From Escherichia phage BSBP01, in the sequence record PQ231202.1: 54,030 nt of DNA, one strand, 5' to 3'. The translations under genes were made by a program, and so were the position numbers. Positions within the stretch are counted from its first letter, which is position 1. Every line of letters begins with the position of its first letter. Shown here in pieces: positions 1-54,030 of the stretch. The notes beneath the pieces are model-generated. The model was not told where the DNA came from and did not search any database. It saw only the letters and a list, made by a program, of their open reading frames with translations.

Positions 1-127
1 TCGGGATGAGGAGTAACCCAAATAAAAGCCTGAACTTTCTTTCTGCACAACACAATCAGCGCAACTAAGCCGTATCGCTACGGTATGCCAGACGCTCTCT
101 TGAGCCTTTTGAACAGAGGCATAACTG
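1..127. repeat. Exact 127-bp direct repeat of 53904-54030 (terminal redundancy or circular-assembly overlap)
   Basis: First 127 nt are identical to the last 127 nt of the window. Confidence 0.9.
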
Positions 128-749
128 TTGGAGGTAAATTGGCGGATTCGGTGAACTCCACGTTCACAATTACACAGTCGGCCTCGGATGCTTCATCCCT
201 ACCCCATCGTGCAGGTTTAATTAACTCTACGAATCCATTGAATTTGGTGACCGATACGTTGGTCAGACGCTGTGGCCTTTACGCGGCCAACGTGCCATTA
301 ATGCTGGCAAGACAGAGCTAACGTTCTCAAGCACTTTGGCGAGGATGTTCTCGGACACTGTTTTAGGAAGTGACCACCTGAACGTCTCGTGTTCATTACG
401 TTGACTTTACGGAGTCATCGGAGCTTCGTTCTCAAGCACGCCGTTTTCTTCTTTGGCCGGAGTCAAGCCGCAAGCCTTTGTCTCGGTGGACTAACCTTCT
501 CACACTAACGATGTGTAGCGGGACGTTCCAATCCTAGGAAGCAGCAATTTTAATTGCTATGCCCAGAGCAATTTGCAGGTTTGTTTGAGTTGGAGTCCTG
601 CTTCCAAACGCATGGGCTTACACCATCATCACAACAAGTTGCTAGAGTCTCGTTATTTAAAGTCGCGCACTCCCTCGACTATGATATACGTGTATTTAAA
701 GTCCCGTACCGGACTGCCAAATGAAATGCGATGGCGAGCATTTGTTCAC

Positions 750-959
750 TCACTGTCGGGTAAGTTTGGAACACTTTTGTGCCCACGTTTCATTGTGGAC
801 TAAAATCTGTGTTTTGGTTTCGCGTGACAAAACTTTCACTTCTGCAACATCCAAATAGATTGGTTGTGCAATTAAGCAATAATCACTTACGAACCCACTT
901 TGAGAGCAACTCACTATCGACATTGCTATCAGAACTGCTAGACACTTCTTTCTGAACAT
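750..959 (-). CDS. Putative o-spanin (outer-membrane lipoprotein), overlapped with the i-spanin in another frame
   Basis: ATG at 959 inside ORF 750..1076; N-terminus MFRKKCLAVLIAMSIVSC has a lipobox (IVS-C); short Cys-containing mature part. Confidence 0.45.
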   Translation of the reverse strand: MFRKKCLAVLIAMSIVSCSQSGFVSDYCLIAQPIYLDVAEVKVLSRETKTQILVHNETWAQKCSKLTRQ

Positions 960-1119
960 GCGTTTTAATCTCGATAGATTCTTTAATGGAATCGAATTGC
1001 TTCTCTGTGGCTTCCTGACGCTCCTCGGCTTTGCCTGAGCTTTTGCCTTTGAGGAACACTGCAATAATAATACCAAATGCAGTCAGGACGCCAAGAACTA
1101 TTGATTTAAGCTGTTGCAT
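883..1119 (-). CDS. Putative i-spanin-like type II membrane protein
   Basis: ATG start with AAGGTGA Shine-Dalgarno upstream; single N-terminal TM segment then charged periplasmic domain; o-spanin start embedded in it. Confidence 0.4.
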   Translation of the reverse strand: MQQLKSIVLGVLTAFGIIIAVFLKGKSSGKAEERQEATEKQFDSIKESIEIKTHVQKEVSSSSDSNVDSELLSKWVRK

Positions 1120-1831
1120 AAATCACCTTAGATGGCGCACGCACCACTTGAGCAGTCGTTGTCGCCAGCACCAGGAACGATTGCTTCTTCGTCCTGCTTT
1201 TTCTTGAGTTCTTCAATTGCTTCTTCGGCAGCACCGAAGTCTAAATTATCAAGTGCATCAAAATCCATGAGGACTCCAGTGTTGCGGGTTATTAAAAATA
1301 GCCCAGAGCCGTTATGCAGATATTAACAATTGTCTGCGAACGGGCTGGGCTTGGTAAGGTGGGGGGGTTTTGATAACGCAGGTTTTCCCGAACTGCGAGG
1401 CTTGTAGCAAGACAGCCGCATTACTTTGCGAATGCCAGCAGGATTGATAGTCCGACCGTCTTTGCTTAGGCAACCTGATTTAATCTACCTTTGTAGATAC
1501 CATCGGTTAGAGCAGTTTATTTCCATGCTAAGGGCAACTCACTTTAAATGAATTAAGTTTGTACTCTGTCACACTGCATCGCCCAGGTGTGCAGCCTAAG
1601 GTTGTCGGTTCATCGCAGAATACAAATTAATTATTGCTCCGATTTATTAATCACATCTCGAAGCCACAATGCGCCAAATTTGGTTACGTGGGATTGGAAG
1701 ACCACGGAGAGGACTTAAATTTAATTAAGCCGCAACTCGCATTTCAGAATCATTTGCACTTGTGTTTAAATGAATAAAACAGTCGCAATAACTCCAGGCA
1801 GTTTAGGCCCGTCGTAAGACTCAGAAAACTA

Positions 1832-1890
1832 CTTCAATAACACCACTCGTAAGTAATGTTATTGAAGCCCACTCTTCCTTTCAGAGTGGG
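1832..1890 (-). terminator. Two tandem perfect hairpins (10-bp and 8-bp stems) followed by a U-rich tract on the minus strand
   Basis: cttcaataac..gttattgaag and cccactct..agagtggg inverted repeats, about 77 nt downstream of the stop of gene 1967..2305. Confidence 0.3.
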
Positions 1891-1966
1891 TTCAAGGCAG
1901 CACCGGAAAACTTCCAGTGCATGCCAGATCGATTTAGCCTAGTCTCTCAAGTTTGCCATCGGCAAC

Positions 1967-2305
1967 TTAGAATACCGGAGCTTCTTCAACAGCAGCTTCA
2001 GCAGCTTCTGCAACACTTGCGTCAGCAACTTTAGCTTCTTTCGGAGTATCGAACTTAGTACGCTCAACTTCCGGCTCACCAGATTCAACCCACGGCAGGT
2101 AGAATGCCAGGAACTGCTCGATGGTGTTCTTCTGCATGGAGCGAGAACGGTCGATAGCGCCAACGGTGTTCAGGTACGCTTCGGCAGCTTTCTCAATTTT
2201 AGCACCGTTTTCCAGTTTGAAGTCATGTGCATTACACTCTGCTTCGGTCAGGAACAGGGAACCATCGTTAGCTTCGTACTGAGTTACGGTTACAATCTTA
2301 GCCAT
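1967..2305 (-). CDS. Hypothetical protein with acidic Ala/Glu-rich C-terminus ending in Phe
   Basis: 112-aa ORF; C-terminus AEAAEAAVEEAPVF. Confidence 0.55.
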   Translation of the reverse strand: MAKIVTVTQYEANDGSLFLTEAECNAHDFKLENGAKIEKAAEAYLNTVGAIDRSRSMQKNTIEQFLAFYLPWVESGEPEVERTKFDTPKEAKVADASVAEAAEAAVEEAPVF

Positions 2306-2380
2306 TTGTATATACCTTATATTGAATAGTTTTGCACGCCACGGTGACGTGACTTAGATAAAATTAAAGAGCCTTTCTCT

Positions 2381-2406
2381 TTCCACATCCAACTAATGTT
2401 TCAGAA
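2381..2406 (-). promoter_or_regulatory. Copy 1 of conserved intergenic motif (plus-strand TTCAnnTCCAACTAATGT), candidate phage RNAP promoter
   Basis: Near-identical about 20-bp element recurs 7 times, always intergenic and in the same orientation upstream of minus-strand genes. Confidence 0.3.
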
Positions 2407-2428
2407 CTGCTCTGATTCGTCAAACGAC

Positions 2429-3103
2429 TCAATATCTATTGAATCGTTCTAGTGTTTTATTTACTAAATCCTTTGTCTCATCGACAGTGAGTTCAGTGAT
2501 GATTGATTCGTCATAACCCTCAATCTGGATTGCTACAAAACGCCCAACTCCAGTCACAGTGAGTCGGTTTGTTCTGTCACGAACAACTACACCAGCTTCT
2601 TGCGCGACTGCTCGCAACAATTTCCAGCGTAAAGTTCGATTTGGCACAGCAAAGCCCTTTGCCGAGAACAACTCTTTCATGAGTTCTCCAAGACAAACAG
2701 CTTCAATGTTTTGTCCTCTTCCAACTAATTCTTGCAACAGGCACAGTGTCAACATTTCTAAATTGTTGAAGTGTCCAGCGCGCTCCAAATTAAAGAACTC
2801 TGGAGGAACAGTTGAACGAGATTTAACAGCTTGCTTATATGCACGTTCTTCTTCCTGTGCAGCAAGCATTAGCATCTCTGGCTTGATGTATTTCATAGCA
2901 GAGAAGCCAGCGCGTGTGGCTTTAATTATGCGACAAGCCTCTTTCATCTTGTAGCGTTGCCACTCACCGCGCTTCGATTCTGGATTAAAATGGACCCACA
3001 TAATGATAACATCTTCCTTGGCAAGATAGACGGCATCATTATCATTGAGCCATTGCTTACACGTTGATAGTGCAATCTCTTTGTCATCATCATGATAAGA
3101 CAT
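2429..3103 (-). CDS. Hypothetical protein
   Basis: Long ORF; start placed at internal ATG (MSYHDDD) 2 nt past the stop of the upstream gene. Confidence 0.55.
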   Translation of the reverse strand: MSYHDDDKEIALSTCKQWLNDNDAVYLAKEDVIIMWVHFNPESKRGEWQRYKMKEACRIIKATRAGFSAMKYIKPEMLMLAAQEEERAYKQAVKSRSTVPPEFFNLERAGHFNNLEMLTLCLLQELVGRGQNIEAVCLGELMKELFSAKGFAVPNRTLRWKLLRAVAQEAGVVVRDRTNRLTVTGVGRFVAIQIEGYDESIITELTVDETKDLVNKTLERFNRY

Positions 3104-3104
3104 T

Positions 3105-3431
3105 TTAGTGGCCTTGTAGGATACGTTTGTTCGCAGTTTCTGCGTCGATTCCCAAATCAACTAATGTCACCAAGCACTGCGAAATCCGCTCTTGCGCAGC
3201 TTTCTCCAGAATTTGGTATTTTTCGTTGTCAACGCCTAACACATTCTTGGCATGAATGAGTGTAGCCATTAGACCATGACCCAAAGCAACAGCTTGCATT
3301 GCCTGGAGTTCAAAGTTAATTGTGATGCCAGCGAGTTCGTGCTCTTTCTGGATAATCTCAATCAACTCTTCTTTAGATTTGTCTTGTAAGTTCAAAATGG
3401 AACTCCGTAAACTGGTTGGTTTGTTGTCCAT
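3105..3431 (-). CDS. Hypothetical protein
   Basis: 108-aa ORF in the co-directional gene array. Confidence 0.5.
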   Translation of the reverse strand: MDNKPTSLRSSILNLQDKSKEELIEIIQKEHELAGITINFELQAMQAVALGHGLMATLIHAKNVLGVDNEKYQILEKAAQERISQCLVTLVDLGIDAETANKRILQGH

Positions 3432-3712
3432 TCGCGGGTTGCGATTTGCATGGACTTGTTTGGGCCGCAGTAGAAATATTTCTTAACTTCTGCAAGGGTG
3501 TATTTAGCACTACATTCGAGTATATCTTTGAAAGTGTGCTTCCAGAACCCGTCCTTCTCAGAAATTCTTACGGTGAAGTTGTTGGTCCCGTTGTAATACC
3601 AACGCCCACCAACGAGAACGAAGTGGATTGTTTCTTCCTCCTCTTCCCCACTTGGCGAAGACATTAGCACATTTCTTAACGTCAAAACTTTAGCAGAATG
3701 CTTACGAACCAT
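3392..3712 (-). CDS. Hypothetical protein
   Basis: ORF 3392..3736 with start moved to the internal Met to limit overlap. Confidence 0.45.
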   Translation of the reverse strand: MVRKHSAKVLTLRNVLMSSPSGEEEEETIHFVLVGGRWYYNGTNNFTVRISEKDGFWKHTFKDILECSAKYTLAEVKKYFYCGPNKSMQIATREWTTNQPVYGVPF

Positions 3713-11826: not shown

Positions 11827-12033
11827 CTAAACTCCGTATCTCTTGTATTTGTCGCCTTTGGAGACTTCCAAATATTCCTCAAATGTGAAAGTCCTCTCCT
11901 TGCTGTTTAATCTTGCCAACGACAAGTCTGCAACAAATTCGGCATTAAAACCTTTGTTAGAGGTCTTTCTCATGTGTGCCCCACCTCGTGTAAAGAATGT
12001 TGCACCTTCTGGTAAATCTTCGAAATTAGTCAT
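11827..12033 (-). CDS. Hypothetical protein
   Basis: 68-aa ORF, first gene after the repeat-rich non-coding region. Confidence 0.4.
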   Translation of the reverse strand: MTNFEDLPEGATFFTRGGAHMRKTSNKGFNAEFVADLSLARLNSKERTFTFEEYLEVSKGDKYKRYGV

Positions 12034-12323
12034 TTTATTCTCCTAAGTTAAAAGAAAACTCCCTACAGAACGATTGTGGAGGTCTTGTCTTACCTCAGTC
12101 CACCTTAAAGTTGTAGGGAGTTATATAGTATTCCTGTGTGTGCCGCCATCAGGGACTTCCTAGTCTGGTGGGCGCGTCGCAATCCAGCAATATACCACAC
12201 GTTTTTCACAGGCTATATATGTGACACACAAAGTGTCTAAAAACTACAATGATTAGCTTGGAGACATAATCTCTCTAAAATCTGTCACACAATTTCAGCA
12301 GAATTTACAGAGATTTGGTCTTA

Positions 12324-12340
12324 TTCACATGCAACTAATG
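12324..12340 (-). promoter_or_regulatory. Copy 5 of conserved promoter-like motif (variant)
   Basis: ttcacatgcaactaatg. Confidence 0.25.
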
Positions 12341-13238
12341 ATAAATGGACATGCTTAATTGCAACTAACTCATCTGCCAAATAGACGAATTTTGTCACAA
12401 TTAAACATGCGTCATTAATTACAGGTTTACTCCCATCTTGGAATGTATTTGGCACATTAAGATTGGAGCAAGTAGGTACGGAAAACCGACCATGTACAGC
12501 ATAATAAAACAAATTAAATAAAGGGTTTTATCCCAATATTGTCACAATATTACATGCGATGATAAAGCCTTCGCTTGGCTGGAAGCCAGTATTCATGCGG
12601 GTTGCAAGAATATTGGGTCAATACTGATACAGCTATTACATGCGAAATTGGCACAAATACTGTTACAAAATTAACATGCCAGATTGGTAGACGATTGTAT
12701 CTTCGAGGTGATTAGTCCTCTAACAATTCTGCCACATTCCAACATGCCAATTTGTAGCAATATTTACATGCCATACTGCGACGCAATTGTCACAATATTT
12801 GTTGCTCAAAATCGGGGCGGCTTCTGCGTGTAAACGAGAGGCTTTGCTCCGACTCTTCTCTTCTTTCGAATTCTGATTGAAAGAAAGAAGCATGTCCAAA
12901 AGTTCCAGTCTTGTAAAAGTTATCTCCCGGCTTGTGGGTGGGCCTTGATAATAGGAGTAACAGGTTGTCCGCTATTTTGTGCACTGAGCTAGGATTGAAT
13001 CCAGATTGCACTTTACTAGGTGGCGAACCAAGATTGAAACTAATAGACATGCTATAGGTGAAGTACAAGTTTCGAAGTATATAATCCTACTCTTTGCCAT
13101 GGTTGCTGGAACTATGGGTAGCTAATCCAGGGAGTTCGACAATTGCCACATTGCCACAACACTTTGACTCAAGCTGTCATGCTGAATGTTTCTAGAATGA
13201 TTCAACATTACATGCGGAATATTTATCCGTATTCTTTT

Positions 13239-13258
13239 ACTTCACATCCAACTAATGT
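13239..13258 (-). promoter_or_regulatory. Copy 6 of conserved promoter-like motif
   Basis: cttcacatccaactaatgtc, just downstream of the RNAP gene. Confidence 0.3.
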
Positions 13259-13361
13259 CGAATATTGAAACAATATTACATGCAGCAATATTGCTTGAAT
13301 ATTGGGATTTAGTTGTTGATGCACAAGAATAGGGCCAGTGTTTCCACCAGCCCCGTTTCTC

Positions 13362-15302
13362 TTATTGACAGAAGTAGTAAGCGTGTTCGCTCATCAGAAG
13401 CTCTTCGGTTACGATGTTCTCATGATACATCTGAATGCCACCGAGTTGCTTAGACAGATTCTCGAATTGATTGTTGGTTACGAAGATTTCAACATATGCT
13501 GCACGAATAACTTCCATCATACGTGGAGCATCTGCCAAACAGCAACGGAAACAATCGTGGATTGAAGTGAAACCACGAAGACCAGCTTCTTTAGCTTTAA
13601 CAGCAACAGTACGAGCAACCAATGCGTCGATACCTTGAATATAGTTGACTACGAAAGTACGCTTGAATTCCTCTTTAGTAGGATTGGATTCACGAATGGT
13701 CCAAGGTTTCTCTTCCTGAATCTGGCCAAAGATAACACGAGTTTGAGAGTCAACACGAATGCTGAATGCATCACAGATTTCACGAGATGGGAAGCAAGGC
13801 TTCATTACAACCTGACCATCAGTGTGCTTATAGGTGATGTATTCCTTGTTAAGCTCAACACAACGTTGATATGCAGCATCAGCAGCTTTCTCAATGAACA
13901 TGTTAATCTTAGCACCCAATGCGTTATGGATTGCTTCCACACACAGTTCAGCAAATGCCTCAGCCTTCTCAACTGGAATCTGAAGAGATGCAGTCATGTA
14001 AGAGATAAAGTCAGAAGAACCAGTTAAAGCAGCTTTACCACCACCATACTGAATAGCCATGTATGGAGTTTTGATAAACTTACGACCAGCTTTCGGATTC
14101 AAGAACTCTTCCATGATTTCAACAGAAGGTTTCATTGAAGACTTATCCAGCAGCTTCAACAGTTCACGAAGACTCAACTGGTATGGGTCAGATGCTTTAG
14201 TCTCAGAATCAACCAGACCTGTTGCACGAGCCATTTCCATGTTACCAGCAATGAATGCCAGATACTGAGTACCAGAACATTTAGCATCTAAGCCAAAGCC
14301 TACACGAGAATCGCATTCACCTGTAGTCTCAAACTTGAACCAATCCAGAGCCAGACGAACATAAGTGAATGGCTTAGAAGGACGTTCAGCTTTAGGCATG
14401 TTCATCATGCGAGCAAGTGAACCAGCTGGATTCTGAGCAACATAAGTTAAACGTTTAGCAGAGCACCAGTCTCCACCAGAAATGTCTTCCAGCTCAGCCA
14501 TGAACATGTTGTATGCAATGGTAGTAGAACCATCTTCGTTAAACTTCTTAACGATGTTCTCAACATTGTGAGAATACAAGCAACGAGCAAAGTCAGAGGA
14601 TTGTGGGTTAGGACCAGCACATGCTACATGATACAGGCGACCACGGTTATCAGCAAAGTAGTCAGAATAGAGTGTATCCTGAGTCATCATTGCTACAGCA
14701 TTGTTCCAAACATGGAGTTCAGTCTGGATTGCTTCTGGCATCTGCAAGCCACCATAAGTACGTTGTTCAAGCATGGACTGGATGATGCGAACCATCTCAG
14801 TCTCCACATGGTACTCAGTATCTTGCAGGAATTCGATTGCAGCTTTCAGAGTTTTGGATGGCTTAACTTTGCCACCTTTAACGAAAGGCTTGCGACGAGA
14901 TTCAGATGTAACACGCTCAGTGAATGGCACTGCTGTGTCTTTGGTTGTAACCAGTTCAACCCATGTGTCAGTTTGTTGGAATGACTTGTCTTCGTTCATG
15001 GTGATGAAGCCGAAGTGCTTAGCCAGACCAATGAGGTTGATAGCTGGGTCAACATAGTGCATTGCTTTCAAATCGTTGTTGTAGCGATTGGCATCAGCAA
15101 TAGAAGCAGAAGCCAGCTCAACCATCGCAATGGCAGGAACAACATCATCACGTGTGAAAGACGTCATCATCTTGAATATGGCTAAGGCAGCAATAGCACA
15201 AGTCTGAGGCTGCATATAGTTCTGCTTCTCTTTGGCACGGTATACCAGAGCAGTGATAGCAGGAACAACAGATTTGATAGTTTGAGTGGTGATAGTAGTC
15301 AT
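13362..15302 (-). CDS. Single-subunit T7-like DNA-dependent RNA polymerase, N-terminally minimal (646 aa)
   Basis: Motif A LDAKCSGTQY, motif B RKFIKTPYMAIQYGGG, motif C TSIHDCF and a VNYIQGID segment align to T7 RNAP catalytic motifs. Confidence 0.8.
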   Translation of the reverse strand: MTTITTQTIKSVVPAITALVYRAKEKQNYMQPQTCAIAALAIFKMMTSFTRDDVVPAIAMVELASASIADANRYNNDLKAMHYVDPAINLIGLAKHFGFITMNEDKSFQQTDTWVELVTTKDTAVPFTERVTSESRRKPFVKGGKVKPSKTLKAAIEFLQDTEYHVETEMVRIIQSMLEQRTYGGLQMPEAIQTELHVWNNAVAMMTQDTLYSDYFADNRGRLYHVACAGPNPQSSDFARCLYSHNVENIVKKFNEDGSTTIAYNMFMAELEDISGGDWCSAKRLTYVAQNPAGSLARMMNMPKAERPSKPFTYVRLALDWFKFETTGECDSRVGFGLDAKCSGTQYLAFIAGNMEMARATGLVDSETKASDPYQLSLRELLKLLDKSSMKPSVEIMEEFLNPKAGRKFIKTPYMAIQYGGGKAALTGSSDFISYMTASLQIPVEKAEAFAELCVEAIHNALGAKINMFIEKAADAAYQRCVELNKEYITYKHTDGQVVMKPCFPSREICDAFSIRVDSQTRVIFGQIQEEKPWTIRESNPTKEEFKRTFVVNYIQGIDALVARTVAVKAKEAGLRGFTSIHDCFRCCLADAPRMMEVIRAAYVEIFVTNNQFENLSKQLGGIQMYHENIVTEELLMSEHAYYFCQ

Positions 15303-15368
15303 TTGTAAGTCTCCAAGATTGTGTATGATTTAACTGAAACGGATTATAATAGCGTAGCCATTACACAA

Positions 15369-15384
15369 TTCACTTCCAACTAAT
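15369..15384 (-). promoter_or_regulatory. Copy 7 of conserved promoter-like motif, about 70 nt upstream of the RNAP gene
   Basis: ttcacttccaactaat. Confidence 0.3.
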
Positions 15385-15550
15385 ATCACAAACCTGTGCC
15401 ATTGTTACAACAGCACGGAGACTTTGACCTTGACCCATAAGCGAAGCGCCTAACTTGGTGTTGTTTGAAAGCCGATAGGCTGTAGGAAAAAGTTGGAGTA
15501 GGGACCGTATTTAAGTCCGATAGGACGTTGGGCTTCCCCTCCCCGCTGGC

Positions 15551-15815
15551 CCAAAAATAAAATTATAATATTGCCACAATTCTAGTCTCGTTAATATCGT
15601 AACAATTCGAGTATCGTAGCTTTGTTACGAATTCTAGTCTCATTAATTCTGTAGCAATATTGAAAATAAAAAAAAAATTATAAAAAAAATTATTTAATAG
15701 TCGGTTTTCCATTCGAACAAATTTCGGCGAGATACAGTTGACCGACCATGTACCATTTGGTTTTAACTTTACGCATTCCTAATATTACTCTTAATATTGT
15801 AGCAATATTGGGAAT
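15551..15815. repeat. AT-rich non-coding region with direct and inverted repeats and poly-A runs
   Basis: aattctagtctc at 15578 and 15630; inverted repeat cgtaacaa/ttgttacg at 15598-15629; TGTAGCAATATT copies also seen in the 12.3-13.3 kb region. Confidence 0.45.
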
Positions 15816-15925
15816 AAATAAATATTTAATTTACTTGTCTTATTCTAGCTCAAAGAGAAACGACGCTAACGCATCGAATCTCTTCTCGCATATAACTGAC
15901 AAACGTCAGCCTTCACCGTATCCAA

Positions 15926-27746: not shown

Positions 27747-30700
27747 TTACCTGCGTTCCATTGCACCATTGCCCATGTTGATTGTTTGGGTAACAGTTTG
27801 TCCATTTGGAGTCGATACGGTTGCAGAGGCTTGCTTGTTGTTTACGGTTGCCTTCACTTCCACGTTAACCACGGTTGGTTGAGTTTGTCCATAAGACAAT
27901 CCATTACGTGTAAAGCCAGCAGCACCCTCAACAATTGCATCACCCTGATTAGCCCACTCACGATATTTCTTGACACGATTCTGAGCCTGTAAAGGAACAG
28001 CATTGAGCCAATCAGTTCCGTGTTTGTTGATAGCATCATCAACAGTTCCGGCACCATCAGTGTACGCAGCCATAGCCTTCTCTACGTCACCATTATATCG
28101 CTTGAGCATTGCATCATAGTAGTCACGACCAACGCGAGCACGTTCTTCCAGTGAGTTATCTTTGGCAGGACGAACACCAAAGCCAGGGTCACGGGCAGTT
28201 GAATCAAGAACCTGCATACGACCTTTAGCACCAGTTGGCGATGTAACCACCGAACCATCTGCGTTCAAATCGCGGTTCCCTGACTCTTCTCCTGCGATAA
28301 AGTCATAAACATTACGTGCTGCATCGGCTGTACCGTTGGAGGCCACACGCATCGTTCTAGCGGCATCGCCACCTGCCTCAATAAAGGTGCTGCCATATGA
28401 GATTGCAGCTTGCGGAACAGCGTAACCAGGCAGTACACCAGCACGCTCCGTCTGCGCGATTCCTAGCTGTGCAACGCCTTCGGCATAGTTTGAGTCGGCT
28501 CCGCGCTTAACGTTCGCCTCAGCCTCGCCCATGCTGTATTCTGTGCGGTCGTAGGCACGAGCCATACCATCCAGACCAGCCATTTGCATAGCGCCAGCGA
28601 TACGCGCCTGACTCCAGCCACGTTCCTTACCACGCTCACGGGCAATGCGTGTTAACGCAACAGGGTCGCCCTGTGCCTGCCTAATGTCACCAATGGTTAG
28701 TAACCCACGGGTTCCAACAACAATGTTGGCAGCGGCGCTGGGGTCGCCATTTAGCAGGGTGTTGTAGGCACTATGTGTGGTTTGATTAAGTCGGTTGGCT
28801 TGCTGAGAGTTAAGCCCTAACATCTCCAAGCCCTGAGTCATGGAAGAATATGCGTTAGGATTATTTACACCAGCGTCTAACGAATTGCCATAGAAGTCGT
28901 TCAGACCTTCCAGAGCTTCGTTACCAATTTGGGTAGCACCAATAGCCATACCAGCGACACGACCCCACGGAGTCATCATCATGGCATTCATAGCACCATT
29001 GGACAAAGAGCCAATACTGCCACCAGCTACGCCAGCAGCCAATGCCCCACCCATGCGACCGAAGTCATCACCAAAACTTCCACCAGCTTGCCACCCACGA
29101 CGTCCACCACCGCCACCAGAACCACCACCGCTAATGCCATAGCTACTGGCATCAAATGTATCCCAGAAGCCACCGCCACCACGACCATCATTTCCACCAA
29201 AGTCGGCATCTTGTCCACGCAGTTTGTTTTCTTCCTGTGCAGCAAGAATACCTTTCTTGACAGATACTGCCATCGAGTCATTGCCAGTCGTGCTGTCAGA
29301 GCCTACGGCAGAAGTCGTGGCCTCACCAATTCCAGCATCAGTGCGATTGCCTATGAATGGGTCATCAGGTGTTCCGGCTACGGCAGAATACCCACGAGTC
29401 GACCTTTGCTTAACATCTTTCCAGATGCCATCGCCAGTCATTGCAGCACGAGCACCCTTGATTAATTCATCATTAGGTAAGTCTGGATTATCTTCAACAA
29501 ACTTTCGACCAGCATTGAGGCGCCCAATAGTAGAATCAATCTTATCTTTGTTGCGCTCGTACCATCCCTCGTCTTTCTCAATCCACTCAGATACCGTCTT
29601 GTCTCCGATTGTCTGAGAGAACAGTGCACGACTACGGCCAGATACAAGCAAGCCAAATTGAATTTGGTCGAAATAGTCCTTATGCTCGCCAGCAGAGAGA
29701 TTAGAAAACTTTTTAGCCCTTTCAGGATTCTTGTGTTCCCAAATCGCGTCATCACCGATAAGGCCATCTGGAGAATACATGAACGACGGATAATTGTCAT
29801 TTGTTATTGCGCCAGCTTGCTCGATATCGAATCCAAACTCTTTGGCGACACGGTTACGAGCAATTTCTTCCGTCCGATGACCTGCTTCGAACATTCTTTT
29901 AGTAAATTCACTTGGCCCCTTTCCGCGTTGTAGGCCAATTTTATCAACCATTGCAGCCCAAGGTCGGGTGTATTCATTGTTGCCAAGAAACGAACCAACA
30001 GTGGAGCCAGTAATGTCGTATTGTTTGCGGAAGTCCAACCATTCCTGAGTTCCCTGTTCCATGTTGTGATAATGGATTGGGCCTTCTTTCGGAGCTGGTT
30101 GTGGAGCAGAGTCCAAGTTAGATATAGCAATACTCTCACGACGAGCGCGAGCAGAGTTCCAACTCGTTGGTGAATCGAGTTGCGCAATAAACTCTGTTGA
30201 AGGACTTAGTTCGGCAGGTTCAGTATTTCTTAAGCGTTCAGCAGGGTCAAATGTCTTACTTACTTCTGCCTCATTATATTGGTGAGCATTCTCAAGAACA
30301 CCACGGATGGATGCACCAGAGTAGCGAGGGTCGTCGCCAATATCTTTCTTAAGATTCTCATACCCAGAACGAACATCTGTAATGTCTGCATAGCGGGAAG
30401 CAGAATCAAGAATCAAATCTCTGTCAGAAGATTGAGTGCGGTACGCGTTCATTCCTCTTTCAGCATCACCAGAATATACCTTTGCCGCAGACTTAACTAC
30501 GCTAGAAACATCTTGGTACAAAGTCCTACTTACATCAGACCAGCCTGGCGAGCCAGACAAGGACGCAGATAATGAGTATTCGGCATTAATACCGCTGCCA
30601 AATGAACCAAGTGGTAAACCAGATGCGTTAAGTGGCTGTCGAGGGTGTTGGATGCCACCAACAATTGATTCAGAGCCAAGTTTAGGCAATGAATCCATGT

Positions 30701-31418
30701 ATGAAAGTTTTGGCCCCGACTTATTTCCTACATTCATTGCAGATACAGCAGCAACTTCTCGGAAGTTTTGCGGCAATTCTGATTCTAAACGTTTGGCTAC
30801 ACGATAAACATCTCGTGCATAGCGGTCTGGGTTGTCGTATTGTTCACGGTCAACATACATGTGGGCAAGATAGCCGAACGACTTGGCAATATCTCCACGG
30901 TTTGTGGAATACTCGCCCATAATGTCGCCTGCATAATGTCCAGGAAGCTCCGGCATTATATCTTGATGGCCTGTCAGCGTATCACGCATGTACGCATTAA
31001 GCATTCCCCAATGACCTTCCGGTTTGTTCGGGTTTGCTTTGGGCATGTGCATCCACACATCATCGGCGGATACACCTAATTTCTCCATGTAGGCATGTAC
31101 AGCTTCTACATGGTGACTTGGACCGTTCATTGCAGCATGAAATGTTTCAGTCAGTCCAGCACCAGAAATCATTTGTGCGATATGAGCTGAGTCTGAAATC
31201 ATGTCGGAAGTACCATAAGAGATGCCATCATCTTCTGTATAGGTTTCTTCCATAAGCTGTGAATTTGTTTCCATCCAACCAGAGGCAGCACTTGATTCAA
31301 GTTGCTGTGCCATATCTCGTTTGCGCATACCTGGATTGAATGACAGACCATATTGAGCACCCAAGCCAATCAATTCGGCTTCAGACATTCTCATTAAATC
31401 TTTTAAGTTATTAGCCAT
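27747..31418 (-). CDS. Tail tape measure protein with lytic transglycosylase (SLT) domain
   Basis: 1223 aa; Gly-rich repeats; TGAKGRMQV ... AAYTDGAGTV SLT-like motifs. Confidence 0.75.
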   Translation of the reverse strand: MANNLKDLMRMSEAELIGLGAQYGLSFNPGMRKRDMAQQLESSAASGWMETNSQLMEETYTEDDGISYGTSDMISDSAHIAQMISGAGLTETFHAAMNGPSHHVEAVHAYMEKLGVSADDVWMHMPKANPNKPEGHWGMLNAYMRDTLTGHQDIMPELPGHYAGDIMGEYSTNRGDIAKSFGYLAHMYVDREQYDNPDRYARDVYRVAKRLESELPQNFREVAAVSAMNVGNKSGPKLSYMDSLPKLGSESIVGGIQHPRQPLNASGLPLGSFGSGINAEYSLSASLSGSPGWSDVSRTLYQDVSSVVKSAAKVYSGDAERGMNAYRTQSSDRDLILDSASRYADITDVRSGYENLKKDIGDDPRYSGASIRGVLENAHQYNEAEVSKTFDPAERLRNTEPAELSPSTEFIAQLDSPTSWNSARARRESIAISNLDSAPQPAPKEGPIHYHNMEQGTQEWLDFRKQYDITGSTVGSFLGNNEYTRPWAAMVDKIGLQRGKGPSEFTKRMFEAGHRTEEIARNRVAKEFGFDIEQAGAITNDNYPSFMYSPDGLIGDDAIWEHKNPERAKKFSNLSAGEHKDYFDQIQFGLLVSGRSRALFSQTIGDKTVSEWIEKDEGWYERNKDKIDSTIGRLNAGRKFVEDNPDLPNDELIKGARAAMTGDGIWKDVKQRSTRGYSAVAGTPDDPFIGNRTDAGIGEATTSAVGSDSTTGNDSMAVSVKKGILAAQEENKLRGQDADFGGNDGRGGGGFWDTFDASSYGISGGGSGGGGGRRGWQAGGSFGDDFGRMGGALAAGVAGGSIGSLSNGAMNAMMMTPWGRVAGMAIGATQIGNEALEGLNDFYGNSLDAGVNNPNAYSSMTQGLEMLGLNSQQANRLNQTTHSAYNTLLNGDPSAAANIVVGTRGLLTIGDIRQAQGDPVALTRIARERGKERGWSQARIAGAMQMAGLDGMARAYDRTEYSMGEAEANVKRGADSNYAEGVAQLGIAQTERAGVLPGYAVPQAAISYGSTFIEAGGDAARTMRVASNGTADAARNVYDFIAGEESGNRDLNADGSVVTSPTGAKGRMQVLDSTARDPGFGVRPAKDNSLEERARVGRDYYDAMLKRYNGDVEKAMAAYTDGAGTVDDAINKHGTDWLNAVPLQAQNRVKKYREWANQGDAIVEGAAGFTRNGLSYGQTQPTVVNVEVKATVNNKQASATVSTPNGQTVTQTINMGNGAMERR

Positions 31419-40143: not shown

Positions 40144-42179
40144 GCGGAGTAGTTGGCACTTGGGCCTGAGAATTCGATTGCAACCATATCTGAAACGTTA
40201 TCGACACAATCGTCGTGTCCAGTACCACTACCCAAAGAAGTGAATCCAAGTATTTCACGTCTAACATGGTCGATGTGTTCATGACCAGCAGGGAAGAATA
40301 TTCTCTTTTGCGAGAAATATGGGATTGCGTTAAGGAATCGAGTTACCTTGTCATTACCATTAATCCCATCACGAGGCAATGGCAAAACTCGGACACTCCC
40401 ATCTCTGATAAATTGTTGGTTCAAGAATTGTCCGGCAGACTTGTCTTCCATGTACAGTGCACGAGGAATACAACCTACGCATTTCAAGTCCAACTTGTTG
40501 CATTTGTTCCAGAAGTCGATGATAGCAGTCTTGAGTTCTGGAGTTTCAAACTTACCGAGCATAATATCTAAACAATAAACGTCACGCTCTTTAGTCACGC
40601 CCCAATGCTTAAGGACCGAATAATCAGAATAAGATTTGGCAGTTGATGCCGTATCCGCTGTAATAAAACTTCTGACTATGCGACTTCTGTCGAAAACGTC
40701 TGGCTCATACTCTTGCCACCAATCTTCTTTGATAAGGCCGTGGCCTTGTGCAGATGGGTCGCCAGCATACTGTGAATTGTATGTGTATGGGTTAGACTCT
40801 TTCATTGCCTCCAGAGATTCTAAGCTCTTACGTGAAGGCCATAATGCAGACTTCTCTTCCTTCCTGTTCAAATTATACAGAATGGGAATAGCATGAGTGT
40901 AGTTCTGCTTCTTGATTAACTTATCATACCATTCAGCACTTCCAACACCTTTCTCAATAATCGCTGGGATATTGAGATAATGGTATTTATCAGAAGAGCC
41001 ACCACGGAGTATATAACCAACTAAATCCTGGTCGTGAACCCGCTGCATGATGATAACCATTGGTGTACGGGCACACTTAATTTGGTTTCCGTACGAATCA
41101 GTTATGCAACCATCGTTGGCAAGGCGTGACATAAAGGTGTTATCAAATCGGTCGTTGATTTCTGCTCGAACTGTGTCAGAGTAGGCATCCTTAGGTTTGA
41201 TAACGTCATCCACCACGAAACAGCCAGAGTATTTTGCAACAAGAAGTCCAGCACCTTTACCAGTTAGCTTACCACCAGTAGGTACTGCGTGCATAACTCC
41301 AGCTTTGGTTGTACCCCAGCGTTCAAGAGAACGTTTGTTAGGGTCGATTCTCACCTTCGGGAATATTCGTTGGAACAGTGGGTCCATCATTACAGCACGG
41401 ATGTAACCACTCGATTCAAGAACAACGTCTTCTGCATACGAGGTGATAATGTTATGGCTTGATTCATTGTGGCAAAATGAATACAAGGGTAATGCGATAC
41501 TCATAAGCTGAGTCTTAGAGTGTCGTGGAGGAATGGTCACTATTAAGCGGTCAATCTCACCATCAACAACCTTCTGACCAACACTGAATATTACATCGTG
41601 AAAGTCTTGTGCTTGAAATGGAAATCCCATCTGAATATGGAACTGCCATTTACCAAAGGCTTCGAAACTTTTCATCAAGATTTTGCGAACACGTTCTGCA
41701 ACCTTGGCAGGGATTACAGTTGGGTCCACGTTATGTGGGTCATGCAGAATCTTGTCTACAAGTTCATCGGTGTTATCATGCTCCGAGTTTGGCTCCTCTA
41801 GTGTGGAACCTGCAACACGGTCAGTAACACCTGCTTGAATACCTTTCTTCAACTCATCTGCATAGGCAGTTGAGTCTTTCTTGTCGCCAGAGCGAAGACG
41901 CTCAAGTTGTGCTCTGAAAACGGAACGCAATACAGCATCGTTTTCAAGACCCTGGCCTTCTAACTCTGCTTGAATTTGTTCTTCATAGCTGTCAACTATT
42001 GCAGTATTTTCTGAAATATATCGACGGAGCAATGGCAAAGATAGAATACAGAATCTTTCTCTTGAGACTTTTAATACGTCACCGTAGTGCTTGGCAAGAT
42101 ACGAGGCTACTGTATCATTAAACTCCGGTCCGAGGTCATCAGTCTTTGACATTGATTCGTTCTCTTTGTTTTTAATCAC
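40134..42179 (-). CDS. Terminase large subunit
   Basis: ATPase P-loop-like TIPPRHSKTQ and C-terminal nuclease motif GHDDCVDN. Confidence 0.85.
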   Translation of the reverse strand: MIKNKENESMSKTDDLGPEFNDTVASYLAKHYGDVLKVSRERFCILSLPLLRRYISENTAIVDSYEEQIQAELEGQGLENDAVLRSVFRAQLERLRSGDKKDSTAYADELKKGIQAGVTDRVAGSTLEEPNSEHDNTDELVDKILHDPHNVDPTVIPAKVAERVRKILMKSFEAFGKWQFHIQMGFPFQAQDFHDVIFSVGQKVVDGEIDRLIVTIPPRHSKTQLMSIALPLYSFCHNESSHNIITSYAEDVVLESSGYIRAVMMDPLFQRIFPKVRIDPNKRSLERWGTTKAGVMHAVPTGGKLTGKGAGLLVAKYSGCFVVDDVIKPKDAYSDTVRAEINDRFDNTFMSRLANDGCITDSYGNQIKCARTPMVIIMQRVHDQDLVGYILRGGSSDKYHYLNIPAIIEKGVGSAEWYDKLIKKQNYTHAIPILYNLNRKEEKSALWPSRKSLESLEAMKESNPYTYNSQYAGDPSAQGHGLIKEDWWQEYEPDVFDRSRIVRSFITADTASTAKSYSDYSVLKHWGVTKERDVYCLDIMLGKFETPELKTAIIDFWNKCNKLDLKCVGCIPRALYMEDKSAGQFLNQQFIRDGSVRVLPLPRDGINGNDKVTRFLNAIPYFSQKRIFFPAGHEHIDHVRREILGFTSLGSGTGHDDCVDNVSDMVAIEFSGPSANYSAWM

Positions 42180-42357
42180 AATCCACTAATGGCTGAGTTT
42201 GCACGGGATTGATGCGAATGATGCTGCCTAAACCAGAATCGGCCTTTAAATACAGGCGGTTTAGTGGCATGTATGAATCACAGATAGGACATTGCTGCGT
42301 TATGAAATCATCTTCTGCAATTTCATAATGGCAGTTTGGACATTGTATTGTGCGCAT
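42172..42357 (-). CDS. Small zinc-ribbon protein
   Basis: CPNC...CPIC. Confidence 0.4.
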   Translation of the reverse strand: MRTIQCPNCHYEIAEDDFITQQCPICDSYMPLNRLYLKADSGLGSIIRINPVQTQPLVDCD

Positions 42358-42412: not shown

Positions 42413-42742
42413 TTAATATTTAATATCGCTCCAGGCCATATCTTTATAGAAATCTTCAAGATATGCTTGGGTAGAACCAACAACCACCACAATCTTAAAT
42501 GGCAGTATCAGCGGCTTAACAGCCGACATTAAATCTTCGCGCCCACGCTTGATACGTTCGACGTTCTTGATTGTGTTTTCACCATGTGGAAGCATGAAAA
42601 CGATAACATCCGCACCTGTTTCATTGCGAACTGCAAGTGCACGGGTGAGATAAGTCCCGCCACCAGTAGAGGTGACATTAGACTTGAGGTATGCAAATTT
42701 AACTTTGCGGTTATTTACTACAACAGGTGAGGACAGTTTCAT
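42413..42742 (-). CDS. Hypothetical protein
   Basis: 109-aa ORF. Confidence 0.45.
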   Translation of the reverse strand: MKLSSPVVVNNRKVKFAYLKSNVTSTGGGTYLTRALAVRNETGADVIVFMLPHGENTIKNVERIKRGREDLMSAVKPLILPFKIVVVVGSTQAYLEDFYKDMAWSDIKY

Positions 42743-47214: not shown

Positions 47215-47460
47215 TTACAGTTGAGTGATAACTAGGGAGAAGTCCAGGTCGTTCATACAAGAGATTAACTCTTGCTCATTGACGACAGGACCAGATAAAG
47301 TTTTAATGAATGCCTGATACATTGAATTGGCAGCATAATCACTTCCAAATAATGTTCCAGCATTCTCGGTAATTACAGACAGCACAGCTTCCCGTGCGTC
47401 TTCACCTTTCTTGACAAAATGGAAATGGTCCACTTTGTCGAATATAGATACAACAACCAT
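47215..47460 (-). CDS. Hypothetical protein
   Basis: 81-aa ORF. Confidence 0.45.
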   Translation of the reverse strand: MVVVSIFDKVDHFHFVKKGEDAREAVLSVITENAGTLFGSDYAANSMYQAFIKTLSGPVVNEQELISCMNDLDFSLVITQL

Positions 47461-53903: not shown

Positions 53904-54030
53904 TCGGGATGAGGAGTAACCCAAATAAAAGCCTGAACTTTCTTTCTGCACAACACAATCAGCGCAACTAAGCCGTATCGCTACGGTATGCCAGACGCTC
54001 TCTTGAGCCTTTTGAACAGAGGCATAACTG
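53904..54030. repeat. Second copy of the 127-bp terminal repeat
   Basis: Identical to 1-127. Confidence 0.9.

Follow-up and report, generated by a model that had tools for sequence, protein, structure and literature searches.

A conserved array of directional, bipartite elements beside the inferred terminal-repeat boundary of the Chaseviridae phage BSBP01

How phages with kilobase-long direct terminal repeats recognize and regenerate their genome ends is poorly understood, and to our knowledge the repeat arrays that lie beside the terminal repeats of T7 and T5 have gone unexplained for decades. In T7, work by Dunn and Studier from 1983 and later studies reportedly describe the SRL and SRR repeats and link pausing at the concatemer junction to packaging; we know of no study that established the function of SRL and SRR, nor of one that proved the function of Repeat Region 3 in T5. 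At terminase sites (the R sites of lambda cosB, pac sites), several short protein-binding elements lie by the cut, with extra conserved sequences on both sides. The primary origin of T7 lies directly after gene 1 and has two phage promoters, and we know of no T7-type origin that contains an array like the one described below. T5 Repeat Region 3 is a highly conserved untranslated region of 1.2 kb, located mostly within the long terminal repeat and extending 270 bp into unique DNA; it holds nine DRD direct repeats and is a candidate injection-stop signal (bioRxiv 10.1101/866236). The T7 concatemer junction (CJ) is a natural class II pauser/terminator, and a 7-base T7 class II pause motif has been documented (bioRxiv 10.64898/2026.02.12.705533).

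The window that we analysed, i.e. the whole stretch of 54,030 nt (PQ231202.1), is the complete genome of the Carltongylesvirus BSBP01 (Chaseviridae, phiEcoM-GJ1-like), in which every gene lies on the minus strand. An earlier note on this sequence had pointed to a non-coding region with repeated ACATGC motifs, for which it considered an origin with iterons, a regulator-binding array or a promoter cluster for early genes. It did so without the key context, namely that the region appears to straddle the inner boundary of the terminal repeat and that related elements flank the other boundary. As in T5, an untranslated region straddles the boundary (placed here by homology) and holds dense repeats that are conserved in the family. 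No description of the array was found in the literature that could be searched, and the paper on ST32 mentions neither promoters nor repeats.

The untranslated junction and its repeated element

The region lies between two minus-strand ORFs (11827-12033 and 13362-15302), the second of which is on the side of the T7-like RNA polymerase (RNAP) gene:

12034-13361, no strand: untranslated junction region of 1,328 bp that separates the RNA polymerase gene from the first early gene

All relatives examined, among them the distant ZPAH14 and VPs20, have a gap of ~1-1.3 kb behind the RNAP gene. The ORFs within 12034-13361 are all 92 aa or shorter and start with TTG or GTG, save for one ATG ORF (42 aa, 12972-13100, minus strand) that lies within a hypervariable segment. 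Intact conservation across genera was sought for four of the gap ORFs (46-92 aa, all with TTG starts) and found for none. A hidden small gene was rejected, since outside the genus these ORFs match only partially or with stops, and the 92-aa ORF was dismissed as a gene because hypervariable segments run through it. Several GenBank records call small ORFs here that probably do not represent genes, which calls for caution in annotation. A search of the gap for tRNAs yielded none, and the Rfam covariance models gave no match at gathering score (in E-value mode, sub-threshold matches to microRNA hairpins only).

The hexamer ACATGC was found 11 times on the plus strand between 12327 and 13283 (957 nt) and once on the minus strand (at 12890), compared to 26 copies on both strands together in the rest of the window. 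With an expectation of 0.24 per 957 nt per strand (Poisson P = 2.6e-15) and a maximum same-strand count of 6 per 1 kb in 500 first-order Markov genomes, the enrichment over randomised sequence that had been proposed is confirmed. The earlier note had counted ten same-orientation copies, mostly as TTACATGC: the clustering and the single orientation stand, the number should be 11, and 'mostly' is too strong for the five of the 11 that read TTACATGC. The AATATTG and TGTAGCAATATT copies it had listed are real as well, and both belong to the ACATGC-bearing unit of 23-24 nt, AATATTGTCACAATATTACATGC. This unit is a directional and bipartite element of 23-24 bp that consists of AAyAYTGnnACA (block A), N5-6 and, at the 3' side, ACATGC (block B). 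It occurs almost nowhere else: 10 of the 12 PWM matches in the 54-kb genome fall within 12388-13283 (shuffles give 0.47). The following members were identified:

12388-12410, plus strand: array element 1, AATTTTGTCACA-attaa-ACATGC (PWM 27.4), position kept in other genera
12535-12557, plus strand: array element 2, AATATTGTCACA-atatt-ACATGC (PWM 28.5), with a perfect 17-mer palindrome inside, 92% conserved over six genera
12620-12643, plus strand: array element 3, 24-nt class (PWM 27.8)
12656-12679, plus strand: array element 4, 24-nt class (PWM 27.8)
12725-12747, plus strand: array element 5 (PWM 25.4)
12748-12771, plus strand: array element 6, CAATTTGTAGCA-atattt-ACATGC (PWM 20.1)
12783-12806, plus strand: array element 7, block A whole and block B degenerate (GTTGCT), repeat family D1
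12890-12912, minus strand: inverted element (PWM 19.0 on the minus strand), an inverted repeat, 35 nt inside the inferred terminal repeat
13030-13052, plus strand: terminal-repeat element (PWM 24.3)
13193-13215, plus strand: terminal-repeat element with weak block A (PWM 19.6)
13261-13283, plus strand: terminal-repeat element adjoining the predicted promoter P1 (PWM 28.3)
12327-12332 and 12349-12354, plus strand: two extra ACATGC without a good block A, one within the predicted promoter P2 and the other beside it

By the boundary placement given below, seven copies are located in unique DNA, and one inverted and three direct copies in the last ~430 bp of the repeat. Element 7 is the copy closest to the genome end and its TTGAGCAACAAATATTGTGACA is kept across genera; element 5 has a counterpart in all six phages scanned (about -102 to -158 from the repeat end, each with -124 to -137). 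The block A of the inverted element (ATTGGAACT type) is kept in five genera, and the extra ACATGC pair (12327-12354) is also kept in other genera. The start-to-start spacing is irregular (22 to 147 nt): the elements of the main array are 147, 85, 36, 69, 23 and 35 nt apart and the ACATGC copies on the P2 side show steps of 22 and 56 nt. The copies are not in helical phase.

Other identities of the element were considered and discarded. A cruciform or hairpin element, after the idea of the N4-type hairpin promoter, was rejected because the complementarity between AATATTG and CAATATT shows no excess above random (3.86 pairs between half-sites versus 3.73 +/- 0.13 in randomly re-paired halves). 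A role as general phage promoter was dropped as the 23-nt element is found nowhere else in the genome. DnaA boxes as present in T5 were also set aside: in our own comparison block A misses TT(A/T)TNCACA at two or three positions, one of them the T in fourth place.

The junction further contains promoter-like motifs and predicted RNA hairpins, listed here together with the motif upstream of the RNAP gene:

13241-13257, minus strand: P1, predicted phage-RNAP promoter CATTAGTTGGATGTGAA, matching by sequence 'putative phage promoter 1' of EF460875
12324-12340, minus strand: P2, predicted phage-RNAP promoter CATTAGTTGCATGTGAA, immediately beyond the array
15369-15385, minus strand: P0, promoter-like motif ~67 nt upstream of the RNAP start codon
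13331-13354, minus strand: hairpin resembling an intrinsic terminator, immediately behind the RNAP gene; SA91KD has an annotated terminator at the matching position
12808-12853, minus strand: hairpin followed by AUUUUG (sense strand), immediately outside the inferred genome end, found in folds of six phages
12671-12751, minus strand: imperfect conserved hairpin between elements 4 and 5, with invariant apex GAGGACTAATCACCTC (12705-12720)
12057-12122, minus strand: hairpin with an 11-bp stem and a U-run, located immediately 5' of the ribosome-binding site that serves the first early gene

The two copies of a promoter-like motif that had been noted before, TTCACATSCAACTAATG at 12324 and 13241, were recovered as two of the eight same-orientation copies in the genome. 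The 17-nt CATTAGTTGGATGTGAA occurs genome-wide in one orientation, as expected of a phage promoter, and five of the eight sites were confirmed to be intergenic. Eight promoters were also predicted in PP101, matching the count here (PMC6989608), and the ICTV profile states that the phage promoters of the family have not been identified experimentally (PMC12842549). P1 and P2, at ~105 and ~1,022 nt from the RNAP stop, are both predictions that are conserved in the subfamily: a counterpart of P1 lies ~40-340 nt after the RNAP stop in all Cleopatravirinae genomes examined, and the SA91KD record labels the homologous sites 'similar to promoter of phiEcoM-GJ1'. A cluster of sigma-70 promoters was rejected, as the 6 -35/-10 sites found are no excess over shuffles (10.7 +/- 3.7). 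The proposed regulator-binding array is compatible with the data, and the region does contain two predicted phage-polymerase promoters.

The hairpins differ in conservation. The one at 12808-12853 coincides with a hypervariable patch (68% identity within the genus, between blocks of 96%) and its inner stems vary among relatives. In the hairpin at 12671-12751, 94% of the cells are paired and six pairs are changed on both sides, a result matched in none of 500 shuffles. The hairpin at 12057-12122 (-28.9 kcal/mol, z = -3.3), an inverted repeat, is 93-98% conserved within the genus. A conserved T-rich stretch is located at 12498-12530.

Conservation and the ends of the terminal repeat

In the 1.9 kb after the RNAP gene, ACATGC is present in 9-14 antisense-oriented copies versus 0-2 sense-oriented copies in 13 genomes (the window and 12 complete relatives from at least six genera; background ~0.5 per kb), and the number, place and orientation of the array are shared by all 12 relatives examined. 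The identity of the array block within the genus is 95.5%, versus 82% at the third codon positions of the RNAP gene, and hypervariable patches border the block; judged from these alignments, the array block is under purifying selection. The spacers and other blocks are conserved almost as well as the motif, so the region has more to do than to offer a single binding site. The distant family member ZPAH14 carries a different motif, which is found only around its own repeat end and would be compatible with a co-evolving binder encoded by the phage.

The terminal repeat was mapped onto the window by homology to the PhageTerm-annotated repeats of Mangalitsa (1-3234) and 4HA13 (1-3120) and to the duplicated record ends of PM1 (2,665 bp); repeat ends of relatives in general were taken from PhageTerm annotation (Mangalitsa, 4HA13, Myduc) or from duplicated record ends (PM1, Y2):

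12855-15514, no strand: inferred direct terminal repeat of 2,660 bp, present as a single collapsed copy in the assembly
12845-12855, no strand: inferred right physical genome end (inner repeat boundary), placed for BSBP01 by homology to relatives
15515-15925, no strand: left flank of the terminal repeat with sister elements, next to the other boundary (15514)

The repeat would contain the RNAP gene only, plus non-coding flanks. Its inner boundary was placed at 12854/5 (Mangalitsa), ~12845/6 (4HA13) and 12849/50 (PM1), i.e. within 10 nt; the boundary of the Y2 repeat (2,608 bp) is positioned equivalently with respect to both the RNAP stop and the array, and the placement of the Myduc repeat end is consistent with Mangalitsa, 4HA13 and PM1. 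By this homology to the repeat ends of relatives, the gap appears to extend across the inner boundary of a ~2.66-kb direct terminal repeat, with 507 nt in the repeat and 821 nt outside. The main array then begins ~50 bp past the inferred right end, in unique DNA, and in the relatives with mapped ends it always occupies -67 to -640 nt on the unique side of the repeat end. Inverted block-A sites flank the repeat end at ~35-60 bp on each side in the five genera with a mapped end. The deposited repeat of PYps23T (2,339 bp), which was set experimentally by its authors, disagrees with the placement at 12850: it ends within the promoter-like motifs P0 and P1 (window ~13247 and ~15374). For annotators of Chaseviridae, the mapped boundary indicates where genomes ought to be opened.

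The left flank of the repeat shares modules with the array region:

15567, 15645 and 15793: left-flank AATATTG-N3-CAATATT
15578 and 15630: left-flank AATTCTAGTCTCRTTAA
15697-15710 and 15730-15753: left-flank modules
12474-12497, plus strand: module AGGTACGGAAAACCGACCATGTAC, common to the array region and the left flank of the repeat

Genome-wide, ACCGACCATGTAC occurs only at 12485 and 15741, and both ACCGACCATGTAC and GTCGGTTTTCC are restricted to the two regions that flank the repeat. Eight of the nine copies of AATATTG-N3-CAATATT in the genome (two mismatches or fewer) are in these two flanks. The left flanks of PM1 and Myduc have the same design, with repeats that combine block A with a different block B. 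Observed directly are the motif, the way it is oriented, conserved and unique within the genome, and where it lies with respect to the repeat ends annotated or duplicated in the records of relatives; the readings below depart from there.

A possible end-marking role and its alternatives

Our preferred reading, to which we assign a probability of about 0.4, is that the ACATGC array is bound by protein and flags the genome end to the terminase or to the machinery of end processing; here we infer the protein binding, the identity of the binder and the control that the array would have over cutting or packaging. The elements would be bound by a phage-encoded sequence-specific protein, most likely a recognition component of the terminase or end-processing machinery, and together the bound elements would assemble a nucleoprotein complex on the concatemer. 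This complex would set the cut that makes the right genome end, between the two inverted block-A sites ~35-60 bp to either side, and the sister elements (same block A, different block B) would mark the other repeat boundary. The predicted promoters P1 and P2 and a terminator-like hairpin surround the putative cut site, which is why end formation may depend on transcription in the way known from the concatemer junction of T7.

In favour of end marking are the local and conserved motif, the purifying selection on the array block, the separate array of ZPAH14 around its own repeat end, the agreement of repeat ends among relatives, the inverted block-A sites that flank the end and the related elements at the other boundary; as at cos or pac sites, the elements lie beside the mature-end cut, the nearest one ~50 bp from the inferred end. 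Against it stand the PYps23T repeat ends at P0 and P1 instead of 12850, the location of most copies beyond the repeat, where the DNA would not enter the capsid together with the marked end if packaging begins there, the covariation of one hairpin, and the uniform orientation with respect to transcription, which also suits a transcription-coupled or RNA-level role. Scans with PHROGs and Pfam of 38 distinct proteins identified no small terminase, DNA-binding or helix-turn-helix protein; the genes upstream of TerL (42172-42357, zinc-ribbon-like at a sub-threshold score, and 42413-42742, without assignment) are candidates only.

The array could also control DNA entry, by an injection stop as in T5. 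The left terminal repeat with the RNAP gene would enter first, and the array behind it would bind a host or ejected protein, causing a halt until phage polymerase is made; the polymerase, starting from P1 and P2, would next draw in or transcribe what remains. The repeat indeed holds the RNAP gene only, with a promoter-like motif before it and a terminator after it, the array starts ~50 bp beyond the repeat end and is flanked by P1 and P2, and this layout is close to that of T5 Repeat Region 3 (bioRxiv 10.1101/866236). Such control would account neither for the other boundary, with its sister elements and its shared modules, nor for the inverted sites around the cut. Furthermore, block A is no DnaA box (two to three mismatches, one of them at the T in fourth place), the motif differs in the other subfamily although the DnaA boxes of the hosts are conserved, and two-step entry is unreported for the family in the papers that could be searched; we consider entry control unlikely. 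We find a T7-type origin likewise improbable. Transcripts from P1 and/or P2 would prime DNA synthesis, and the gp4-like primase-helicase would load at the elements or recognise them. In favour of such an origin are the position just downstream of the RNAP gene, as in the primary origin of T7, the two phage promoters (predicted only), the conserved T-rich stretch and the T7-like replication genes (primase-helicase, DNA polymerase, SSB, exonuclease, ligase). An origin of this type requires no ten-copy array, however, and would leave the link to both repeat boundaries unaccounted for; the spacing is irregular, the T7 primase trinucleotide GTC is present in some copies only, the GC content of the 1-kb window with the main array (12001-13000) is 0.395 and no lower than that of adjacent windows, and the GC skew has no inflection across the gap, although the latter is uninformative as an origin test because all genes are on one strand. 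The iteron origin that had been suggested fits poorly too: iterons are regular, helically phased repeats of ~17-22 bp, and the units here, of 23-24 bp and in one orientation, have an irregular spacing of 22-147 nt, the replication genes are T7-like, and an initiator (Rep, O or DnaA-like) was found by PHROGs and Pfam in none of the 38 proteins, many of the small early ones having no assignable function.

The single orientation of all copies relative to transcription, their location between P1 and P2, ahead of every early gene, and the elements that adjoin both P1 and P2 would suit a transcription regulatory array, in line with the second and third options of the earlier note, in which operators, pause sites or roadblocks, or weak promoters, read by a phage regulator or polymerase, time the switch from the RNAP gene to early and middle gene expression. 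In our own comparison the sense-orientation element and the promoter motif have CAT...TGTGA in common, and some block A variants (AATCTGTC) are similar to what we take to be the sequence of the T7 class II pause motif. The pause-like similarity is on the antisense strand, sigma-70-like sites are not enriched, the 23-nt element is found neither at the six remaining promoter-like sites nor elsewhere in the genome, ten operators over 900 bp are unusual for a simple switch, and the sister elements of the left flank would be left unaccounted for; we find the regulatory reading very doubtful. The same low standing is given to a structured non-coding RNA or long 5' leader from P1, in which GCAUGU blocks would pair (G-U closed) into hairpins that serve RNA processing, stability or protein sequestration. 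The sense strand of 12230-12860 folds at -199 kcal/mol versus -145 +/- 7.5 for shuffles (z = -7.2), more strongly than the antisense strand (z = -5.1), the hairpin at 12671-12751 covaries (six pairs changed on both sides, 0/500 shuffles) and the entire block is conserved, spacers included. The consensus over six genera is nevertheless weak (-34 kcal/mol over 455 columns, covariation term 0), most of its helices are uninformative, being self-pairs of the invariant GCAUGU, the complementarity within elements shows no surplus (3.86 vs 3.73 +/- 0.13 pairs), Rfam gave no match, and P1 is separated from the array by a hairpin that resembles a terminator. Pairing alone would moreover favour a perfect palindrome and not the strictly asymmetric ACATGC.

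End marking, the reading we prefer, could also be joined with entry control. The boundaries of the long repeat of Chaseviridae would then carry a bipartite code, a shared block A plus a side-specific block B (ACATGC at the right boundary, a block particular to each lineage at the left one), that is read by phage proteins, and the right array would act twice. It would first gate entry, limiting delivery and expression to the RNAP gene of the repeat, which in a myovirus would amount to two-step entry of the T5 kind driven by a T7-like polymerase, and would later direct the terminase cut. We regard this combination as quite improbable.

Comparison with known systems

The Chaseviridae offer a compact and strongly conserved set of candidate cis elements, comprising the bipartite motif, a cut window, sister elements and flanking predicted promoters. 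As the genome is small and the phage flopper grows on E. coli K-12, the recognition of ends, a coupling to transcription and a possible entry in stages are open to direct tests. Iteron origins (lambda ori, plasmid oriV) are alike in having same-orientation repeats in non-coding DNA, but the spacing here is irregular, no initiator gene was found in the scans described above, and a tie to both terminal-repeat boundaries is not a property of origins. Terminase sites (lambda cosB, pac) similarly present multiple short binding elements next to a cut, as the putative ones here would, and extra conserved sequences occur on either side of the cut in both; they differ in that here 7-11 irregularly spaced copies extend over 450-900 bp, that two different cuts are required, one per repeat boundary, and that neither a small terminase nor a helix-turn-helix protein was identified.

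With the T7 concatemer junction the region shares short imperfect direct-repeat arrays outside the terminal repeat on both sides and a single-subunit RNA polymerase, and T7 ties polymerase pausing at the junction to concatemer processing. The T7 units are ~7 nt long and surround a repeat of 160 bp, whereas here they are bipartite, 23-24 bp long and surround a repeat of 2.66 kb that includes the polymerase gene; no sequence similarity to SRL or SRR was seen.

Compared to T5 Repeat Region 3, the quoted repeat motifs show by inspection no resemblance to our element, and T5 has DnaA boxes, which block A is not. The T5 region is mostly inside the repeat while ~60% of this one is outside, the T5 repeat spans 10 kb with many pre-early genes in contrast to 2.66 kb with the RNAP gene only, and T5 relies on the host polymerase. 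Common to both are an untranslated region of ~1.2-1.3 kb across the inner boundary of a long direct terminal repeat, dense direct and inverted repeats with palindromes, and a family-wide conservation above that of many neighbouring genes.

The bipartite element and the promoter-like motif

We found that the ACATGC hexamers in the gap (12034-13361) between the RNAP gene (13362-15302) and the first early gene (11827-12033) are the 3' block within a 23-24-nt element composed of block A (AAyAYTGnnACA), an A/T-rich spacer of 5 or 6 nt and block B (ACATGC). A two-block weight matrix recovered 12 matches genome-wide (0.47 in shuffled genomes), 10 of which lie in 12388-13283, here called the array. 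Two copies deviate from the others:

12890-12912, minus strand: inverted copy, among the 10 matrix matches in the array
12783-12806, plus strand: further copy, block A intact and block B degenerate

The hexamer itself occurs within 12327-13283 in 11 plus-strand copies and one minus-strand copy. The 26 copies in the rest of the genome (both strands summed) predict 0.24 per 957 nt per strand (Poisson P = 2.6e-15), and the densest 1-kb stretch in 500 Markov-resampled genomes held at most six. The same-strand cluster described in the earlier note is thus real and far above chance, with 11 copies instead of the ten counted there; about half of them, not most, read TTACATGC. Three more copies (30986, 31043 and 31093, minus), ~50 nt apart, lie within a 1,223-aa ORF (27747-31418); they have no block A and are probably due to repetition in the protein sequence. 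A hairpin-type element was unsupported, as complementarity of the half-sites inside the elements was not in excess.

A distinct element is the 17-nt motif, called promoter-like in the earlier note, that reads CATTAGTTGGATGTGAA on the sense strand. It is usually followed by GAGAG, is kept across the subfamily and has eight copies in the genome, every one in gene orientation (all five checked sites are intergenic):

2382, 4565, 8440, 12324, 13241, 15369, 27694 and 47338, gene strand: promoter-like motif, 17 nt each

One copy lies ~67 nt upstream of the RNAP gene. The records of phiEcoM-GJ1 and SA91KD label the motif a putative phage promoter, and it matches the eight phage promoters predicted in PP101 (PMC6989608); the ICTV profile (PMC12842549) stresses that such promoters still lack experimental proof. 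The motif is probably the promoter of the phage polymerase.

Within the gap no tRNA was found and no Rfam family at gathering score (E-value mode gave only sub-threshold microRNA-hairpin matches). The four gap ORFs (46-92 aa, all with TTG starts) are matched in other genera only in part or with interrupting stop codons, and the 92-aa ORF crosses a segment whose conservation within the genus is 0-15%, so that no conserved small protein was found and the description of the region as non-coding stands.

The predicted terminal repeat and right genome end

Members of the Chaseviridae have linear, non-permuted genomes whose direct terminal repeats measure ~2.3-3.2 kb (PMC12842549; PMC9699118; PMC8762354). 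The window (54,030 bases) is a complete phage genome in circular assembly, in which the true repeat is present as a single collapsed copy. An exact 127-bp duplication at the window ends (1-127 = 53904-54030) is the assembler overlap. Apparently all genes are on the minus strand, and identity to the Escherichia phages ST32, Mangalitsa, flopper and phiEcoM-GJ1 (genus Carltongylesvirus, family Chaseviridae) is 85-93% in the tested stretch. The DNA polymerase is apparently split over two ORFs (48591-50048 and 47460-47954, minus) that are separated by an HNH endonuclease gene (48084-48521); further HNH/endonuclease genes are found at 50056-50463 and 52942-53394. The repeats of the relatives are as follows:

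Mangalitsa, 1-3234: terminal repeat, PhageTerm
4HA13, 1-3120: terminal repeat, PhageTerm
Myduc, 1-3202: terminal repeat, PhageTerm
PM1, 2,665 bp: terminal repeat, identical record ends
Y2, 2,608 bp: terminal repeat, identical record ends

Mapped by homology, the inner boundary falls on the window at 12854/5 (Mangalitsa), about 12845/6 (4HA13) and 12849/50 (PM1), and the outer boundary at 15514. From these positions we infer a repeat of 2,660 bp (12855-15514) with the RNAP gene as its sole gene. The gap would straddle the right genome end, with 507 nt within the repeat and 821 nt outside. In all six phages compared, from five genera, the main array is found in unique DNA at 67-640 nt from the boundary, with its orientation unchanged. 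The 2,339-bp repeat of Yersinia phage PYps23T (MW147598), which its authors determined experimentally (PMC8762354), conflicts with this, as its boundary is unlike that of the five other phages. The deposited repeat starts and stops inside two 17-nt promoter-like copies (window ~15374 and ~13247), and the discrepancy could be a genuine difference or an artefact of ligation-PCR or recombination between these near-identical 17-mers. Proteus phage Myduc has 218 bp perfectly duplicated in tandem (2767-3202); the duplication ends exactly at the annotated repeat end (3202) and may be an assembly artefact at the boundary.

The order of features along the sense strand, with P0, P1 and P2 as predicted phage-RNAP promoters, is:

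15385-15369, minus: P0, then the RNAP gene
13354-13331, minus: putative intrinsic terminator after the RNAP gene
13257-13241, minus: P1 with an abutting array element, then two elements
12912-12890, read along the sense strand: inverted element, then a purine-rich tract
about 12850: right end, closing the repeat part
12853-12808, minus: hairpin then AUUUUG, directly outside the inferred end
12806-12388, read along the sense strand: seven array elements
12340-12324, minus: P2, then a conserved leader
12122-12057, minus: strong conserved hairpin (11-bp outer stem, z = -3.3), then UUUUCUUUU (U-run)

P1 and its adjacent element are enclosed by an inverted repeat (13249-13315) with 29-nt arms that are 79% complementary. 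The terminator-like hairpin outside the end coincides with a hypervariable patch (12808-12853, 68% identity between blocks of 96%); its fold is kept and its inner stems differ among several relatives. The hairpin at 12057-12122 immediately precedes the ribosome-binding site of the first early gene and could be a terminator, an attenuator or an RNase III-type processing site. In the five genera whose repeat end is mapped, inverted block-A-like sites are found at roughly 35-60 nt on both sides of it. At both boundaries, YC|GGA(C/G) follows a purine-rich tract, a short likeness that could be chance.

Conservation and the left boundary

The non-coding gap of ~1-1.3 kb after the RNAP gene occurs in every family member examined. 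The comparison covered 13 Cleopatravirinae genomes, namely the window plus 12 relatives (Carltongylesvirus, Sabourvirus, Suwonvirus, Loessnervirus, Faunusvirus, Myducvirus, one Aeromonas phage and metagenomic contigs). Over the 1.9 kb past the RNAP gene, each has ACATGC 9-14 times against the gene direction and 0-2 times along it, with a background of ~0.5 per kb. Within the genus, block 12234-12813 is 95.5% identical (RNAP gene: 91.9% overall, 82% at third codon positions) and is bounded by hypervariable patches (12134-12213, 12814-12853 and 12954-13033). Motif positions are 97.1% conserved versus 93.8% for the spacers, a slight difference, and across genera other blocks, e.g. GTTAGAGGACTAATCACCTCGAAGATAC and TGTGCCAAATAC, are conserved as strongly as the motif. 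Judged from this conservation, the array region is therefore a composite cis-acting region, with more to it than one repeated binding site. The distant Aeromonas phage ZPAH14 is without the ACATGC element and has its own direct repeat, ATAGGTATGAGACA, in 5-6 copies confined to the surroundings (3128-3457) of its own terminal-repeat end at 3373, a pattern that co-evolution of the sites with a phage-encoded binder would predict.

With ≤ 2 mismatches allowed, the genome has nine copies of AATATTG-N3-CAATATT, block A's palindromic core, eight of which fall in the repeat's two non-coding flanking regions:

12535, 12609, 12656, 13261 and 13287: palindromic cores, array region
15567, 15645 and 15793: palindromic cores, left flank

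Common to the left flank (15515-15925) and the array region, and found nowhere else in the genome, are ACCGACCATGTAC, GTCGGTTTTCC and 55 nt at 15792-15846 that match 12498-12552 in reverse complement. The left-flank repeats of PM1 and Myduc align with the right-hand elements, with ACATGC swapped for TTAACGGCTC and AAGTCGTAAG, respectively; the window has TTAAYGAGACTAG. Each repeat boundary thus seems to be marked by block A, common to both, together with a block B specific to its side. Just outside the left boundary we also observed long A/T runs, AAAAAAAAAATTATAAAAAAAATTATTTAAT (15640-15700), and a G-rich block, GGGCTTCCCCTCCCCGCTGGCCC (15531-15553), an equivalent pattern being kept in other genera.

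Possible functions of the array

The position at the genome end, the inverted sites, the sister elements, the lineage-specific motif and the strong purifying selection, taken in combination, point to the array as a set of predicted binding sites by which the end-forming machinery would recognise the repeat-unique junction, a reading to which we give roughly two chances in five. Either a terminase or an accessory factor would do this, and transcription by the phage polymerase may be coupled to it; a small terminase was not recognisable in the genome.

The main rivals are a T5-like entry-control signal, a T7-like transcription-primed origin, a transcription regulatory array and a structured leader RNA. 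For entry control, the nearest layout described is Repeat Region 3 of T5 (bioRxiv 10.1101/866236); a transcription-primed origin would fit the location after the RNAP gene, the two predicted promoters and the T7-like replisome. An origin with iterons in the strict sense, as offered in the earlier note, fits poorly because the spacing is irregular and no initiator was found in PHROGs and Pfam scans of 38 distinct proteins. The promoter cluster offered there is not borne out by sigma-70-like sites, which are not enriched in the gap (6 versus 10.7 expected). As to RNA, the sense strand of 12230-12860 is much more stably folded than its shuffles (z = -7.2; antisense strand, z = -5.1), an excess that is mostly GCAUGU self-pairing via G-U pairs, and the consensus fold of ten genomes is weak, its covariation term being zero. 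The hairpin at 12671-12751 has six compensatory pairs, reached by none of 500 shuffles, which keeps an RNA or single-strand structural component among the possible parts of the region.

We found no account, in the searchable literature, of the bipartite element or of its conservation throughout the family, its constant placement relative to the repeat end or the side-specific block B. The array would be of value mainly as a tractable system, in an E. coli phage, for studying recognition of long terminal repeats. Repeat-rich untranslated regions, of unproven function in both cases, are also known beside the terminal repeats of T5 and T7.
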